From: a phage
Length of the DNA: 64,000 bases
Direction: 5' to 3' (one strand)
Assembly (NCBI GenBank): GCA_036253495.1
Contig: GCA_036253495.1_4125.1
In this document: positions 3,959 through 61,971 of the stretch, piece after piece
How the letters are laid out: each line of letters begins with the position of its first letter
How positions within the stretch are numbered: position 1 is the stretch's first letter
Notes under the pieces: generated by a model
Databases searched by the model: none
What the model saw: only the letters and a program-made list of their open reading frames with translations
What the model was told of the DNA's origin: nothing
Translations under genes and position numbers: made by a program

Positions 3959-4180
3959 ATGACTACAATGACTTGCATTTACGCTTCCAATCTTCTGAAT
4001 GATGCGGCCTTTAATGTTGATTCAGAATATCAATGTTATCGGGATGAAAATAAAAAAGTTTTTGTAGTTGATAATAATGGTTTCCATATTGAATTGCAAT
4101 CCGGCTTCACTGGCGTTGATGGTAAATCAGTATGGGGCGTACAGGATGATAAAGGTACATATCATTTTAAACGTAATTAA
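3959..4180 (+). CDS. hypothetical early protein (73 aa)
   Basis: SD AAGGAATAAA + ATG 3959; track start 3791 spans promoter. Confidence 0.65.
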   Translation: MTTMTCIYASNLLNDAAFNVDSEYQCYRDENKKVFVVDNNGFHIELQSGFTGVDGKSVWGVQDDKGTYHFKRN

Positions 4181-4183
4181 GTA

Positions 4184-4242
4184 TTGACAAAGTATCTTAG
4201 TACTGTATAATAGTTTACATCAAGGGGAGAATAGTTCTCCCC
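4184..4242 (+). promoter_or_regulatory. sigma70-like early promoter + 5' stem-loop
   Basis: TTGACA 4184-4189, TATAAT 4206-4211, hairpin GGGGAGAATAGTTCTCCCC 4224-4242. Confidence 0.7.
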
Positions 4243-4263
4243 GATACTAAAAGGAATAAAATC

Positions 4264-4671
4264 ATGACTACTACTAATCAAGCTCGGTCCATCGCCAACG
4301 ATAAAAATCATGCTGCAATGGTCGCTGGTTACATTGAAGCTATGCAATTCAGTACTGTACACAATGAGAACGGCGAATACCTGGAAGATTATGAATTATC
4401 AGAGCAAGCCCATCAAGCGGCAGTGATTGCATGTTCACGTTTCCTTGCTGTACATGGTGAAGATATGGAAACAGTACAAAAACACCATAATCCTGATTAT
4501 ACTTATAATCATGCAGGTCATGATCTCTTTCTTACTCGCGAAGGTCACGGTACTGGCTTTTGGGATCGTGATATCGGTCACTATGACGATGTATTCACTA
4601 AGTACTGCGAAGAAATCAACGTTTGCGATCCCTATGTAGGCGATGATAATCTAATCTATATGGGCGAATAA
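4264..4671 (+). CDS. hypothetical early protein (His/Asp-rich)
   Basis: track ORF 135 aa; cassette promoter + SD AAAAGGAATAAA. Confidence 0.7.
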   Translation: MTTTNQARSIANDKNHAAMVAGYIEAMQFSTVHNENGEYLEDYELSEQAHQAAVIACSRFLAVHGEDMETVQKHHNPDYTYNHAGHDLFLTREGHGTGFWDRDIGHYDDVFTKYCEEINVCDPYVGDDNLIYMGE

Positions 4672-4677
4672 AAGTAC

Positions 4678-4736
4678 TTGACAAAGTATATCAGTACTGT
4701 ATAATAGTTTACATCAAGGGGAGAATAGTTCTCCCC
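4678..4736 (+). promoter_or_regulatory. sigma70-like early promoter + 5' stem-loop
   Basis: TTGACA 4678-4683, TATAAT 4700-4705, hairpin 4718-4736. Confidence 0.7.
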
Positions 4737-4758
4737 ACCAATAAAAGGAAACAACATT

Positions 4759-5031
4759 ATGTCAAGCTACTCCGCTACTATGATCATTAAAGATATGAAC
4801 GGTAATCCTACTTCTGCTGGTGGATCATTTGGAAACATTAACTTAGATGGTCGGTTATCAATGGAATCAGCCATCAATGCAGCGAAAGAAGTTTTTAAGA
4901 ATGAATGTACTGTAAGCAAGCTAGATTATATGGGCTTCGCTATCGAGAAAACTAAACGTTTTGTGGACTACAAAAATCCACTAATGATTGATACTAACCT
5001 GAAAGCTAACGAAGTGGAATACTTATTATGA
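4759..5031 (+). CDS. hypothetical early protein
   Basis: track ORF 90 aa; SD AAAAGGAAAC. Confidence 0.7.
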   Translation: MSSYSATMIIKDMNGNPTSAGGSFGNINLDGRLSMESAINAAKEVFKNECTVSKLDYMGFAIEKTKRFVDYKNPLMIDTNLKANEVEYLL

Positions 5032-5219
5032 CAGTTGAAGAAGTTAAAAAAGTACTGGCAGTACTACGCTATCATAATCATTGCAAGGTGAAGAATGATC
5101 CTGATTATGTTGATTCATCCCTGGAGGAAGACACCTTAAACGCGATAAGCCATATGCAAACATTAGCAAAGCGTATGACCGAAAAGAATAGGCCGGACTA
5201 TATCGGAAATAAAATTTAA
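5028..5219 (+). CDS. hypothetical protein
   Basis: track ORF 63 aa; ATGA overlap with previous. Confidence 0.6.
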   Translation: MTVEEVKKVLAVLRYHNHCKVKNDPDYVDSSLEEDTLNAISHMQTLAKRMTEKNRPDYIGNKI

Positions 5220-5226
5220 AAAGTAC

Positions 5227-5288
5227 TTGCATTGTAGTTAGATTAAAGTATAATGTTTTATATCGAGAGGGGGAAATGGTTTCCCCTC
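5227..5288 (+). promoter_or_regulatory. sigma70-like early promoter + 5' stem-loop
   Basis: TTGCAT 5227-5232, TATAAT 5249-5254, hairpin GAGGGGGAAATGGTTTCCCCTC. Confidence 0.7.
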
Positions 5289-5306
5289 AAGTCCAGGAGA
5301 TACACC

Positions 5307-5570
5307 ATGAACACTATCGAAATCACTATTAATGCTCACGTATACGACAACGTAGTACTGCAAACTACTATGACCGCTAACGATACCAGTACTTTGCGGA
5401 ATACTGTTATAAGTGCTGTATGTGCCGCTATCGGTGATGTATCCCTGGAAAATGCAGAACACATCAACAACGGTTTCACTATGTGCAAACGTGATAACGC
5501 AAAACATATCATCGTAGAAGGTTACGGCGGTGTAGAATATAACCTTTATATGAAAAAAGTACTTGCATAG
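5307..5570 (+). CDS. hypothetical early protein (87 aa)
   Basis: SD AGGAGA + ATG 5307; track start 5253 is in promoter. Confidence 0.65.
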   Translation: MNTIEITINAHVYDNVVLQTTMTANDTSTLRNTVISAVCAAIGDVSLENAEHINNGFTMCKRDNAKHIIVEGYGGVEYNLYMKKVLA

Positions 5571-5619
5571 TAACTAAAACAAAGTATAATGTTTTGCATA
5601 GGGGGAGATATCCTCCCCC
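5563..5619 (+). promoter_or_regulatory. sigma70-like early promoter + 5' stem-loop
   Basis: TTGCAT 5563-5568, TATAAT 5585-5590, hairpin GGGGGAGATATCCTCCCCC 5601-5619. Confidence 0.7.
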
Positions 5620-5638
5620 ACTAATAAGGAGTACTACG

Positions 5639-5863
5639 ATGGCTAATCATGATGAACTGATTCGGGAAGTAGCTAACCTGGCGGCAGAAAAGAAATCATT
5701 TGATTCTATCTATAACACCGCTCACCGTGATTCAGTACTGGCATGTAATCAGGATCAAAAAGATGAACTGATCGCAACCTATCATGAAGCATGGAAGTAT
5801 TACCGTCAATGGGAGAAAGAAGAAAAAGCATCAACCATAAGAGGATTAAATAATCTAGTATAA
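5639..5863 (+). CDS. hypothetical early protein (74 aa)
   Basis: SD TAAGGAG + ATG 5639; track start 5594 is in hairpin. Confidence 0.65.
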   Translation: MANHDELIREVANLAAEKKSFDSIYNTAHRDSVLACNQDQKDELIATYHEAWKYYRQWEKEEKASTIRGLNNLV

Positions 5864-5915
5864 CAATAAAAGGGGATGATAATATCCCCTTAATAATTTC
5901 TATAATAGGTTAACA

Positions 5916-6182
5916 ATGAAAAAGAAAACAACATATCGCTATAATAAAAATTATCAATCCGTTGTATTAGATCACTCTATGCTCCCGCTCGTTGTCCCTG
6001 CCGTTGGTGTAGTCTATCAATCCATATACTGGTCAAGGAAACAACAAAAGTACTTAAAAGGCCCACTAGCACGTTATGAGGGTAACGGTGTATGGTCCGA
6101 TCCGTTACATCCAATCACTACGCGTTATATTGAATATTTTCCTTATTGTGACTACATTGAAATACATCCTAAATTTAATTGA
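5916..6182 (+). CDS. hypothetical protein, paralog of 6263-6520
   Basis: track ORF 88 aa; shared LP..P..G..Y....W......Y.....Y.GNG.W.DP..PI pattern. Confidence 0.65.
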   Translation: MKKKTTYRYNKNYQSVVLDHSMLPLVVPAVGVVYQSIYWSRKQQKYLKGPLARYEGNGVWSDPLHPITTRYIEYFPYCDYIEIHPKFN

Positions 6183-7395: not shown

Positions 7396-7458
7396 TTGCA
7401 TAGTACTTAGTAAAGTGTATAATGTTTTACATAGAGAGGGGGAAATGGTTCTCCCTCC
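7396..7458 (+). promoter_or_regulatory. sigma70-like early promoter + 5' stem-loop
   Basis: TTGCAT 7396-7401, TATAAT 7418-7423, hairpin GAGGGGGAAATGGTTCTCCCTC. Confidence 0.7.
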
Positions 7459-7477
7459 TAAATTAAGGAGTTTTATC

Positions 7478-7879
7478 ATGACCTTCTCAATCACTTCTTA
7501 CGCTGACGTTTTAGTACTGGCTCGGACTTTTGGTAAAGATGCACTGGAGTACGCTGTAAGTAATGGTACTATCCAACCGGAGCAGTGCCGCATCATTGGA
7601 AACTGCAAACGTTGGGCGGTATCCAATACTATTGCACTGGAAAACTTCAACGATGGCAACAATGAATATTCTGTTGATGTAGTATTCGAAGCCGTTGATC
7701 TCGGCGGTATCTATAACACTAACCTGAATGATGTGCGTATCGTTCGCACGGGGTTCGGTGCTTATGATGTATCTATTCGTGAAGCTATGAACACCGGATA
7801 CATTAGCAAGGACTTACTTGCTCACATCATGCAGCTGTGGACGGAACGTAACGAAGCACGCACTATCTTAGGACTGTAA
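7478..7879 (+). CDS. hypothetical early protein (133 aa)
   Basis: SD TAAGGAG + ATG 7478; track start 7415 is in the -10. Confidence 0.65.
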   Translation: MTFSITSYADVLVLARTFGKDALEYAVSNGTIQPEQCRIIGNCKRWAVSNTIALENFNDGNNEYSVDVVFEAVDLGGIYNTNLNDVRIVRTGFGAYDVSIREAMNTGYISKDLLAHIMQLWTERNEARTILGL

Positions 7880-7903
7880 GCATTACACATCACCAAACAT
7901 CAT

Positions 7904-7923
7904 AGGCCGCTCTCTAGCGGCCT
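7904..7923 (+). other. GC-rich stem-loop without T-tract
   Basis: AGGCCGCTCTCTAGCGGCCT perfect inverted repeat; mRNA-stability or processing site candidate. Confidence 0.4.
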
Positions 7924-7947
7924 TAACTATATCAGGAGTACACACAC

Positions 7948-8157
7948 ATGATCTATACAGTATACAGCGTTCTAGGTACTATTGCAGGCGTACACGATAA
8001 CGTCAATGATGCTATGCGTACAGTACTGCAACAGGTTCCACTAAAGCCTAAGACTATTAAGCAGATGACAGCACGACTAACCAGGGCAAAGGCTGGCGGT
8101 GAAGTCTGGCAGGACTACGCGGATACGCAGATTATCATTGCAGTAAGTAATGATTAA
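7948..8157 (+). CDS. hypothetical protein
   Basis: track ORF 69 aa; SD CAGGAG. Confidence 0.6.
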   Translation: MIYTVYSVLGTIAGVHDNVNDAMRTVLQQVPLKPKTIKQMTARLTRAKAGGEVWQDYADTQIIIAVSND

Positions 8158-44859: not shown

Positions 44860-45699
44860 ATGAAATTAAATTTTATTATCAACTTTAATGTTAAAGAAAC
44901 CGATCATTACGCATCAGAAGATGACCGTGTTGCACCAGCTTCGTCTGAATACATCAGAAATGAAAATGTCCATATGCATGAAAATTATTTCGACTTTGGT
45001 AATTTTATTATCTACCGTGGATTTAAGGATGTTGTATTCCGTTCCAGATATGAAGACTTTGAACATGCACTCATTGATGTACCAGATGAATTAGTATTCC
45101 AGTTCATGTTACTTGGTATTAAAGATTATGACTTTATAGTTTATAACCATTATACTAAGCGTATTATGATTGGTAATGATTCATATGATCTTACTTATTA
45201 TTCCAGTACTGATGAAGATTTAGAAAATATTAAACGCCGTTCTGGTGGTATACGTAATTGTTCATCTTCAAACTCCAGTAGAATGAGTGAAAGGTTTTTT
45301 GATTTCAAAAATAGCAATAATAACGACTGTGAAGACGCGGACAATACTGAACATGTAATGTTTGAAATTGACCACAATAATGGATATAATGACTTCCTTA
45401 ATGTTCTGAAGCCTTATATCAATCATAAATTCATCAAAGATGTAAATCTGGTAGCTCGTGACTTACAGTACAGTGATCGTACTGGTGGTATGCCTGTACC
45501 AATGGATCGTGTATGTACGAACAATACAGTGTTTAATGTACCACGAGAAGATGTTGCATTTGTATTTCTGGCATTTTTGAATTCAGATGCACTATGGGAC
45601 GATAATGAAAGACAATTTAGTTCAAGACATATTGAAATAATTCGTCAAAATACATTACTACTGTGGAAGAAATTTACTGAAAATACCCAGGACAAATAA
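44860..45699 (+). CDS. hypothetical protein (279 aa), FQxS-like motif
   Basis: track ORF; motif DELVFQFMLLGI. Confidence 0.65.
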   Translation: MKLNFIINFNVKETDHYASEDDRVAPASSEYIRNENVHMHENYFDFGNFIIYRGFKDVVFRSRYEDFEHALIDVPDELVFQFMLLGIKDYDFIVYNHYTKRIMIGNDSYDLTYYSSTDEDLENIKRRSGGIRNCSSSNSSRMSERFFDFKNSNNNDCEDADNTEHVMFEIDHNNGYNDFLNVLKPYINHKFIKDVNLVARDLQYSDRTGGMPVPMDRVCTNNTVFNVPREDVAFVFLAFLNSDALWDDNERQFSSRHIEIIRQNTLLLWKKFTENTQDK

Positions 45700-45719
45700 A
45701 TTCTTGGTGATATAATGAT

Positions 45720-45752
45720 GAGTGGCAATATATCTTTGTCACTCTTTTTTTT
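45720..45752 (+). terminator. rho-independent terminator
   Basis: GAGTGGCAA..TTGTCACTC hairpin (one G-U) then TTTTTTTT. Confidence 0.7.
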
Positions 45753-46391
45753 AATCCTGAAAGGTTCCATATGGAAATGATTAAGAGCCTAATCCACTCG
45801 AAAATGTAGAGGGTAGATGAGTAGTCCTTTCAGTACGAACAGCAGATGAAACCCGTCAGATGTGGGCATATTATGAACCCCTCACGGCAATGCGGCTGTA
45901 TAAAGAACTCCGATAAGCACACAGAGAGTTCCTAGATAGACATATAAGGATCGCACCTTACCAGATTTGCTAAGGGAGATTTCATTAGAAATTGCGGTCA
46001 ACTATTTGTACAAGATAGTTGCGTCCAAAATTTGGTGAAATCAAATACCAGTACTGTTCATATGGTACTCGTATTATGTGTCGGGATGTTTAAGACCGAC
46101 GACCGTTGCTACAAGAACCGCGATAGAGAGAAACAGAGCAACCCGCTTTCGCCTCGTTAAGAGAATTCGTGATATGAAATATGTGAAGACCACCAGCGTC
46201 AAATTTTAATTCTTTCCCCCAGTGGGGGGATGAAATATGCTCTTCCAAACCTCGTCAATATTAATTAAAACCATTTAGTACTATTAGAATTATTCAGAGC
46301 GTAGCGATGAATTAATTCTACTGATGTTGATTGAGTGCTAACGAAATCAATATCGAGTACATTATTTGATGTTTCCTAAAAAGGAATAATA
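45753..46391. other. ORF-free, GC-enriched intergenic island; candidate structured RNA or degraded insert
   Basis: no ORF >=60 aa in any frame over ~640 bp in an otherwise gene-dense window; visibly more G+C; hairpin CCCCCAGTGGGGGG at ~46216-46229. Confidence 0.3.
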
Positions 46392-46934
46392 ATGCCTGTA
46401 TTTTCAAAGAACAAAACAACAGAGATCATTTATAAATCAAAAGAATTTGAAGTACTAGAAGAATTTGATAGAGATTCATTTGATGGATATAAAATAGTAA
46501 AAGAAAAAGGAACTATCAATCATATTGTTGAGTACATGGGAGGTGTAGAACTAGCAAAAATCACTTGTAGACCTACAAAAAACCCAGTAATTTTTTCTGT
46601 TCGCTATGGACATTACGGAGAAGAGCGATATAATTCTAATACAGTATCAAGGAAATTCCATGTTGTAGATGGGAAATTAGAAGGGGAATCCAGACAATAT
46701 AGTGTTCTTGGACTTCCTTTGTCAGTGAAGTACTTCCATCAAGGACATGATGTTACTATTGAAATTATGGATTTTATTGGGTTCAATGGTACAGTAGATG
46801 ACTTCAACTTCTATGTATTAGCAGAAGATGAAGCATTCAATATAATGATGAAGTACGGTTCTAGATTTAAATTTTTATATGAGTACAACCTGGACAGTAA
46901 ACTGTTCGATAATATCTTACAGAACTGTCTATAA
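46392..46934 (+). CDS. hypothetical protein
   Basis: track ORF 180 aa; SD AAAAGGAA. Confidence 0.65.
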   Translation: MPVFSKNKTTEIIYKSKEFEVLEEFDRDSFDGYKIVKEKGTINHIVEYMGGVELAKITCRPTKNPVIFSVRYGHYGEERYNSNTVSRKFHVVDGKLEGESRQYSVLGLPLSVKYFHQGHDVTIEIMDFIGFNGTVDDFNFYVLAEDEAFNIMMKYGSRFKFLYEYNLDSKLFDNILQNCL

Positions 46935-61728: not shown

Positions 61729-61971
61729 ATGATTTTATTTTTTGCTTTGTATGGTGTAGGAGTACTGAGTACATTTATCAGTACTTTTCTTATCATCAAT
61801 TGGGGTTCTTTTAAAGATACCCCTACCACAATGATTAATATTAGTACCTGCTCTATGTTATCAGTACTGTGGCCTGTGTCGTTGGTGTATCTTTTCATTT
61901 CAATCTGTAAAGATTTTTACGATACACTAACAAAATTCAAGAAGAAGAAACATGACAAAGACGGAAATTGA
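61729..61971 (+). CDS. small membrane protein (two TM helices)
   Basis: track ORF 80 aa. Confidence 0.55.
   Translation: MILFFALYGVGVLSTFISTFLIINWGSFKDTPTTMINISTCSMLSVLWPVSLVYLFISICKDFYDTLTKFKKKKHDKDGN

Follow-up and report, generated by a model that had tools for sequence, protein, structure and literature searches.

Comparative evidence for a family of large, multiply pseudoknotted non-coding RNAs encoded in several copies by RaK2-like jumbo phages

Why does a phage genome that is otherwise almost fully coding leave several hundred nucleotides without any obvious gene? The question is raised by a locus within a 64,000-nt stretch of phage DNA (contig GCA_036253495.1_4125.1; hereafter the window), where an earlier note, made from the sequence without database searches, had described an island free of open reading frames (ORFs). 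Indeed, no ORF of at least 60 aa is found in any frame between the stop of a 279-aa gene at 45699 and the ATG of a 180-aa gene at 46392, the latter with an AAGGA Shine-Dalgarno sequence ahead of it, which confirms the lack of ORFs stated in the same note. According to our own scan, these 692 nt (45700-46391) are the largest gap without an ORF of that size in the window, the runner-up comprising 422 nt. Judged from comparison of related sequences, the segment 45752-46262 (plus strand) is one of four paralogous genes in this phage for a large, highly structured non-coding RNA. The corresponding family, as far as can be seen from the genomes compared, is under strong constraint in RaK2-like jumbo phages, which keep it in syntenic positions and in several copies, about 4-5 per genome. 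The gene is equipped with a promoter and encodes an RNA of about 450-510 nt with three well-supported pseudoknots and a weaker fourth, and the family matches no catalogued RNA.

The DNA of the window shares 99.5-99.7% identity with Escherichia phage A4 (ON286972.1, Asteriusvirus, 355.5 kb), in which the region is unannotated. In the whole A4 genome, four copies are present at 65.1, 125.8, 205.6 and 321.0 kb, all intergenic, on the plus strand and in unannotated gaps, with a spacing of 60-115 kb and pairwise identities of 73-79%. The window itself contains one of them, designated c1 (403 bits over 45753-46265 with nhmmer), and no further copy was found within it by searches including nhmmer. 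Sensitive blastn with the island retrieved 62 phage records, all representing RaK2-like jumbo phages from Escherichia, Salmonella, Yersinia, Erwinia, Serratia, Cronobacter, Pectobacterium, Klebsiella and Xanthomonas, with 4-5 matching places in every listed record. A consensus query returned 73 phage records, with the Alcyoneusvirus group (K64-1, RaK2) gained and 3-6 matching places per genome; by nhmmer, the K64-1 and RaK2 copies are full-length (E = 2e-47), including the 3' module described below. In genera other than Asteriusvirus, a fifth and more divergent paralogue is encoded. From IMG/VR, motif scanning combined with nhmmer yielded 59 distinct full-length copies, all located on jumbo-size contigs or fragments of such phages. 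In these scans, a strict pattern was too narrow (0 matches) and a fixed-spacing pattern gave mostly chance matches, while looser patterns were productive. A 15.7-kb IMG/VR contig (L026) was considered as a satellite, an assignment that was rejected, as it is a jumbo-phage fragment with the synteny of the A4 copy c2. No copy was found on plasmids, and outside jumbo-size contigs full-length nhmmer copies occur only in one E. coli island and in one Buttiauxella metagenome-assembled genome (MAG).

The position of c1 between hypothetical genes of ~270 and ~175 aa is kept in phages 121Q, fHe-Yen9-04, 7t3, Hallingskeid, XbC2, BF, GAP32 and XaC1, and this shared synteny excludes a recent acquisition. 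The idea of a recently acquired fragment, one of the candidates put forward in the earlier note, is thereby refuted, as the same syntenic position is found in Asteriusvirus, Eneladusvirus, Mimasvirus and unclassified relatives and the element is conserved above its flanking genes. Within Asteriusvirus, the island is 86-88% identical versus about 81% for the flanking genes, hence the non-coding stretch is the more constrained part. The G+C enrichment claimed for the island is real on exact calculation (0.393 versus 0.341 for the window) but only modest, as 7% of all 639-nt segments reach this value. By part, the conserved segment 45752-46262 has a G+C content of 0.421 and the last 130 nt are AT-rich (0.279). 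The maximum of the window, 0.46, is found elsewhere, at about 7450-8150. The second-largest ORF-free gap lies at 333-754, and small coding sequences (CDS) are annotated around there in A4.

An RNA gene is supported, above all, by the pattern of substitutions. In an alignment of the four A4 paralogues, invariant blocks stand between clearly compensatory changes, and RNAalifold deduces 73 pairs from 12 sequences, 38 of them with double compensatory changes. The structure model, obtained by an all-against-all column scan of a 44-sequence alignment of distinct copies, comprises 86 pairs in 19 helices, including four long-range ones of pseudoknot type. Over the 44 copies, 96.0% of the model cells are paired, compared to 37-45% with partners slid by 1-3 columns. 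Likewise, 61 of the 86 pairs have changed on both sides (18-29 with slid partners) and the covariation score amounts to 0.496 (0.06-0.09 with slid partners), values reached by none of 500 shuffles. Because the model was picked on this same alignment, its fit was checked on sequences outside the derivation. In the E. coli island copy, 80 of 85 pairs are retained (17 with changes on both sides relative to the window), and in the Buttiauxella copy 76 of 80. In the Alcyoneusvirus group, 74 of 79 pairs are kept in K64-1, with 25 double changes versus the window, and 70 of 79 in RaK2; the two copies of the fifth paralogue keep 55 of 61 and 56 of 58. Comparison with related phages thus reveals compensatory pairing, strongly backing a structured non-coding RNA, which had been the first candidate named for this island. 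Moreover, G-U pairs are abundant (for example, UG in 31 sequences at columns 375/386 and GU in 35 at columns 451/471), which would become A-C mismatches on the opposite strand, so that the plus strand is the folded one. Promoter and terminators agree with this orientation.

Is there any way of explaining the stretch without an RNA gene, that is, by a decayed protein gene, a conserved ORF below 60 aa, what is left of an intron or homing-endonuclease gene, or protein-binding sites arrayed at the DNA level? Some annotators call small ORFs here, on either strand, and one 70-codon stop-free stretch runs on the plus strand. However, the annotated mini-ORFs vary in strand and position between genomes, the longest stop-free stretch has a median of only 54 codons over 59 copies, and no conserved reading frame, below 60 aa included, was found. 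Furthermore, the conserved blocks contain indels that are not multiples of three, and the substitutions are compensatory rather than codon-like. An ATG following the G-run of the 3' module was considered as the start of a conserved micro-ORF and rejected, since it is missing in c3 and the frame shifts between copies, several of which lack the ATG or have it out of frame. A degraded intron or homing-endonuclease gene, likewise proposed in the earlier note, is not supported, in view of intact flanks (the neighbouring ORFs are unsplit, complete and unrelated genes with PHROG matches across their full length), the lack of any Rfam intron match at E up to 10 and strong purifying selection in many genomes. 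All in all, an explanation without an RNA gene is extremely improbable.

The RNA does not correspond to a known class either. Searches with Rfam 15 (4227 models, among them GOLLD, ROOL, OLE, HEARO, raiA, RNase P, tmRNA, group I and II introns and 6S) gave no match in the window at gathering thresholds, and permissive searches retrieved nothing relevant at E up to 10 for 45500-46600 and nothing at E up to 5 in nine diverse homologues. The earlier failure to find a tRNA cloverleaf agrees with ARAGORN, which predicts 0 tRNA or tmRNA genes in the window. Literature searches did not find a description of this RNA. A large screen for structured viral RNAs (8495 csRNA alignments) reported motifs of 29-151 nt (PMC10690425), hence none of them can be the whole RNA, and fragments of it may be among them.

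The structured core of about 450 nt (45752-46204; this and all following features are on the plus strand) has at least 15 helices and consists of P2-P13 together with the long-range interactions PK0, PK-A, PK-B and PK-C. PK0 joins the 5' leader (CUG, 45757-45759) to the loop of P3 (CAG, 45831-45833); all three pairs show double changes at 89% pairing, making it the weakest of the long-range helices. Hairpin P2 (45789-45816) bears a near-invariant loop, GAAAAUGUA, with seven of its eight pairs compensatory, and is followed by P3 (45821-45836), whose loop hosts the 3' strand of PK0. P4 (ACAGC/GCUGU) encloses P5 (CCGU/ACGG) and a variable hairpin (45839-45899); pairing amounts to 100% here, and the region contains a conserved A-rich internal loop, GAAACCCGU. 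PK-A connects AUG at 45890-45892 with CAU at 45941-45943 (99% paired) and occurs in three co-varying states, AUG/CAU, ACA/UGU and AUA/UAU. Between its strands lies P6 (GAACUC/GAGUUC, 45905-45931), a hairpin with all six pairs compensatory and up to five pair types. Then, a near-invariant junction, GAUAGACAUAUAAGGAUCGCACCUUACC..CUAAGGGAG, which can also be written as GAUAGA...UAAGGGAG, extends over 45932-45983 with invariant columns and the short helices P7 and P8. The subsequent variable domain of two hairpins (45984-46043) is shorter or missing in some paralogues, for example, in c2 of A4.

The 3' half of the core starts with the 12-bp hairpin P9 (46044-46075; 11 of 12 pairs compensatory) and hairpin P10 (GUGUCGG..CCGAC, 46079-46101). 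The pseudoknotted centre at 46105-46171 comprises PK-B, P11 (CGCGA/UCGUG), P12 and the P13 hairpin. Here, PK-B (GUUGC at 46105-46109 with GCAAC at 46138-46142) crosses P12 (GAGAG/CUUUC, 46126-46130/46146-46150). PK-B, P11 and P12 are paired in 99.5-100% of cases with compensatory changes present, and the single strands GACC, AAACAG and CCCG are invariant. Directly downstream, AUAUGAA at 46172-46178 forms the 3' strand of PK-C by pairing with the P9 loop (UUCAUAU, 46057-46063) about 110 nt apart, all seven pairs being compensatory and 99.7% paired. The core is closed by tail hairpin P15 (46186-46204), which includes a direct repeat, DR1 (..ACCAGCGUCAAAU).

Beyond the core, a 3' module follows. 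Its first part (46210-46235) consists of P14 (CCCCC-AGU-GGGGG, 46215-46228) and an invariant GGGGGGAUGAAA; P14 is the local hairpin CCCCCAGTGGGGGG that had already been spotted in the island. The second part is a second direct repeat, DR2 (CAAACCUCGUCAAUA, 46247-46261), and both repeats of a given copy undergo concerted evolution. Across the family, the module is almost invariant, reading as a C4-5 run, a G6 run, AUGAAA and ..CAAAYCYCGUCAR. Its occurrence in A4 is restricted to the four RNA copies, and it is, therefore, part of the element; for the same reason, its interpretation as a general phage promoter or signal was rejected. DR2 corresponds to the last 10-12 nt of the module and repeats the final nucleotides of the core. 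Within a copy, both repeats are CGUC in most cases, both CUUC in K64-1 and RaK2 and both GUGUC in three copies, and the AUC/ACC preceding them also co-varies. DR1 pairs with the upstream strand of P15 (consensus GACGA), and this pairing covaries. Among the 59 copies, the P15 5' strand can form at least 4 nt of pairing to DR1 in 38, and to the DR2 of the respective copy in 40, compared to 15% for shuffled cores. The simplest reading of the concerted repeats is that the alternative DR2 helix would be open only to read-through transcripts.

Two additional hairpins (46285-46320 and 46323-46354) are conserved with compensatory changes in phage 121Q, and folding of 46179-46395 gives z = -3.57. Hairpins with CGUAG or ACGAA loops follow many copies, their conservation across the family being loose. 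Downstream of DR2 in many copies (e.g., L045, L034, L060 and L094), recurrent hairpins with ACGAAGUGA or CGUAGUG loops are seen, and a motif UUGAC-hairpin-GGCAAAU is placed directly ahead of the next gene in many copies. As a genome-wide signal, ACGWAGTG loops were discarded, being not clearly enriched in the window (6 versus 2.2 expected, with 4 of 100 shuffles reaching 6).

Concerning expression, a sigma-70-type promoter is predicted at 45689-45716 (AGGACA-16 nt-TGATATAAT, with TATAAT as TG-extended -10 box; 10 of 12 matches). In the remaining A4 copies and in the island copy of E. coli, it reads TTGGGA-N17-TGnTATAAT, and in the c1 orthologues of BF, Yen9-04 and XbC2 GTGAAACG-N17-TATAAT. The latter type has been reported from GAP32 and CBB as a 'divergent RpoD-like' promoter (PMC5259590). 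Every well-resolved copy has its own sigma-70-type promoter. The terminator reported in the earlier note upstream of the island could be substantiated; it is the intrinsic terminator of the 279-aa gene (45720-45752), with a stem of nine pairs at 45720-45744 followed by T8, and is positioned directly 3' of the RNA's promoter. The -10 box ends at 45716, only 3 nt ahead of the terminator hairpin, and the same promoter-terminator order is kept in c1 orthologues from other genera. With this spacing, the transcript would begin inside or just ahead of the hairpin. At the other end of the core, most paralogues have an intrinsic terminator between DR1 and P14; in its canonical form, which itself covaries, it is present in roughly half of the 44-copy alignment (gaps in 21-23 sequences at these columns) and missing from the c1 and c3 types including the window copy. 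In the window, the RNA would consequently be part of the mRNA of the downstream gene. Ahead of this gene, a hairpin UUCCU-AAAA-AGGAA (46373-46386) is predicted, from this one sequence only, to sequester the Shine-Dalgarno sequence. Just 5' of that hairpin, AUUUGAUGU (within 46362-46391) can pair with the DR1 region. A shared partner of the repeats in the downstream 5' untranslated region was considered and rejected, as such a helix is possible in the window copy but complementarity across the family equals that of shuffled controls; no family-wide downstream partner of the repeats was found, with mean complementary runs of 6.05 for own versus 6.13 for shuffled regions.

Does the RNA then act as a cis-acting leader, either as a put-like antiterminator working on RNA polymerase or by controlling translation or stability, with the terminator and DR1/DR2 as expression platform? 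This would fit to the succession of promoter, structured RNA, terminator and same-strand genes for c1, c3 and c4, and to the window copy running without a terminator into a gene with a predicted sequestered Shine-Dalgarno sequence. The HK022 put RNAs and other processive antiterminators indeed show the same order of promoter, folded RNA, terminator and genes. However, put RNAs have about 70 nt and two stem-loops, and 450 nt are far above the size of known antiterminator RNAs. Moreover, c2 faces genes on the opposite strand, the downstream genes differ among paralogues and a family-wide downstream partner of the repeats is lacking. A role as cis-acting leader is, accordingly, quite unlikely.

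A replication or packaging cis-element had been among the candidates of the earlier note, and the G-run of the 3' module raises the question of whether the element is a replication origin, the transcript serving as a primer comparable to ColE1 RNA II or the R-loop origins of T4. Folding of the transcript would then favour a lasting RNA-DNA hybrid at the G6/C-run, resulting in 4-5 origins per 350-kb genome, and by extension an island with one copy could be replicated by the phage machinery. ColE1 RNA II has about 550 nt and needs a G6/C6 interaction for hybrid formation, and T4 possesses several origins using promoter transcripts. Similarly, the copies considered here are multiple, on one strand and 60-115 kb apart, the strong promoter lies about 460-480 nt 5' of the invariant G6 and C-run (about 0.5 kb in the model systems as well, in which RNA folding also matters) with A/T-rich sequence thereafter, in A4 the module is restricted to the RNA copies, and single copies are found in integrative islands showing no recognisable replication gene. 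The GGGGGG after the C4-5 run is invariant in every copy, though as sole evidence for a primer RNA it is weak. In contrast to the known primer systems, an efficient-looking intrinsic terminator precedes the G-run in about half of the copies, no antisense regulator is evident, and three or four covarying pseudoknots with invariant loops exceed the needs of known primer RNAs. In addition, the GC skew has no inflection at the site, and the RNA is absent from related islands of Klebsiella, Yersinia and Cronobacter, hence it does not serve the islands as their core replication function. An origin is, for these reasons, considered fairly unlikely.

The bacterial copies allow for another view on the element. 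Among 5426 complete E. coli genomes, two (LR-29-1 and EEC_W5) harbour an identical full-length copy (401 bits), which shares 80.6% identity with the closest phage copy sampled and possesses its own phage-type promoter, terminator and 3' module. It is part of an island of about 10 kb adjoining ffs, which starts with an integrase split by IS3 and a 303-aa protein with a weak PADLOC match; downstream of the RNA, a 257-aa membrane-like protein, two small proteins and a resolvase are encoded. This island also carries the defence candidate PDC-M45 (DuOB, DUF488, mSLOG-DUF4326). Between the RNA copy and the 257-aa gene of LR-29-1 (L233, 9545-10255), about 700 nt more of ORF-free and partly GC-richer DNA are seen, possibly a second non-coding element. 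The Buttiauxella copy (299 bits), on a contig of the MAG, is located between an integrase and a CI-like repressor, and the genes thereafter encode a 257-aa-protein homologue, an LprI-like protein and a resolvase; in the slot from integrase to repressor, the RNA is the only cargo, with no other gene of at least 90 aa. A loose-pattern scan of GTDB gave, among the matches listed, almost exclusively chance hits in GC-rich genomes, this Buttiauxella locus (L188) being the only real one, and the bacterial distribution of the RNA is under-sampled.

The 257-aa protein marks an island family widespread in Enterobacterales, with a core of integrase, the ~257-aa membrane-like protein, a 118-aa protein, resolvase and DUF2188. 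Its insertion site adjoins ffs/ybaY in E. coli and Klebsiella, whereas the Yersinia members are inserted at other places. In the Klebsiella, Yersinia and Cronobacter islands examined, the variable slot is occupied by other cargo, including a ~500-aa protein, a SMODS-domain gene and a PAAR-domain gene. The RNA as a core gene of this family was rejected, as none of these islands contains a copy; the RNA is, hence, accessory cargo. That single copies are carried in the variable slot suggests that the RNA by itself has an effect open to selection where jumbo phages and host elements are in conflict.

The RNA might also be a phage decoy, sponge or anti-defence RNA, with the island copies functioning as counter-measure (dominant-negative mimic) or hitch-hiking device. 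The intact, full-length island copies with phage-type promoter, located in a slot between integrase and core genes, would be in line with this, as would the defence candidates otherwise carried by the same island family (PDC-M45 and the SMODS- and PAAR-domain genes) and the Buttiauxella slot with the RNA as its only cargo. On the other hand, the case is purely contextual, the copy is found in only two of the 5426 complete E. coli genomes, and the 4-5 diverged syntenic paralogues rather suggest a housekeeping role in the phage. To our knowledge, no defence or anti-defence RNA resembling this RNA has been described. A role primarily in conflict, therefore, seems improbable.

As mechanism, a folded RNA whose core binds a partner or acts as a catalyst is favoured instead, with tail, terminator and DR2 forming a read-through switch, although this proposal is tentative and somewhat less than an even bet. 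The core would be a self-contained, abundantly transcribed RNA whose action depends on the tertiary fold, be it as binding partner of a protein or a further nucleic acid or in a ribozyme-like manner, and not on long antisense pairing. In transcripts ending at the terminator, GACGA would pair with DR1, whereas it could re-pair with DR2 in read-through transcripts. The window copy would yield the RNA as 5' part of the downstream-gene mRNA, either acting in cis or being processed out. Taken as a whole, an RNA gene family, with this folded-RNA and tail-switch mechanism as its tentative mode of action, is the best explanation of the locus and appears quite probable. More specifically, the family could represent an undescribed class of large, multiply pseudoknotted RNAs at the scale of GOLLD, ROOL and OLE, being catalytic or a subunit of a phage ribonucleoprotein, retained by RaK2-like jumbo phages in 4-5 diverged paralogues as a functional component of infection, and captured by islands for interfering with phages or riding along, an assumption we hold with somewhat less than even confidence.

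Several points weigh against this explanation. Model derivation and scoring relied on one and the same alignment; the resulting inflation of the scores is mitigated by the slid controls and the out-of-sample copies. Support is weak for PK0, P7 and P8. Folded as a single sequence, the core has an unremarkable energy (z = -1.64), hence the case rests on covariation. The true 5' end of the window copy is uncertain, as the promoter is directly upstream of the terminator hairpin. Re-pairing of the tail with DR2 is deduced from concerted evolution of the repeats only. Finally, the literature search found no transcriptome paper for these phage genera.

Comparison with known systems is instructive in this context. 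GOLLD and ROOL are large ornate non-coding RNAs common in phages and prophages. With these (RF01998 and RF03087), the present RNA shares a size of several hundred nucleotides, pseudoknots, dense structure, phage location and independent transcription. In contrast, no sequence or structure match is obtained at E up to 10, the present family has 4-5 paralogous copies per genome and a conserved 3' module past the terminator, and it does not adjoin tRNA genes (the A4 tRNA cluster is elsewhere). Group I introns and RNase P RNA are similar in size and likewise combine several long-range helices with a compact core in which unpaired nucleotides are invariant, but Rfam matches (including RF00028) are lacking and the element is not inside a gene. 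By-eye comparison also indicates a helix order different from the P3-P7-P3'-P8-P7' of group I introns and the P4 architecture of RNase P. Other large phage RNAs are known from expression data: ncRNA001-004 of PA5oct, defined by RNA-seq, are very abundant and lie in ORF-less gaps (PMC7318152), as do the abundant ~800-nt transcript of ICP1 and the PLE ncRNAs (PMC7567579). The likeness lies in the location, with large lytic phages or their satellites having gaps of 0.2-1 kb devoid of ORFs; the difference is that those RNAs have expression data but no published covariation-supported fold, while the reverse holds here. PA5oct is a distant jumbo-phage relative of the RaK2 group, and nhmmer --max with the family profile gave no match below E = 4.8 to its ncRNA001, 002 and 004.

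A few observations concern the phage genome in general. The palindromic octamer CAGTACTG represents a motif over-represented throughout the genome, with 55 occurrences in the window versus 0.87 expected (e.g., at 131-138, 46049-46056 and 61862-61869); one site is within P9, and AGUAC is frequent in terminator stems of other RNA copies. In phage A4, AGTACT is present about 945 times and is densest over the first 30 kb of the record, and a 2-kb ORF-free stretch outside the window (A4 4139-6138) is packed with (T)CAGTACTGA repeats. Also outside the window, the large terminase of A4 is annotated as two CDS with a 276-bp gap between them (230273-232584), which could be due to an intron, an intein-like insertion or a frameshift.

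Large, intricately folded RNAs of bacteria and phages are rare, and those known have either revealed new biochemistry or remain prominent problems (GOLLD, ROOL and OLE). The family described here comprises dozens of diverged copies providing unusually strong comparative evidence, and it is represented in phages of a tractable host, as 121Q, PBECO4, phAPEC6 and A4 are E. coli phages. With 4-5 paralogues per genome and a natural single-copy version in bacterial islands, genetic handles are at hand. In addition, about 70 deposited jumbo-phage genomes contain recurring gaps, unannotated or mis-annotated, which the family explains. Should the island copies counteract or exploit phages, then phages and host elements would be in conflict in a new way, at the level of RNA.

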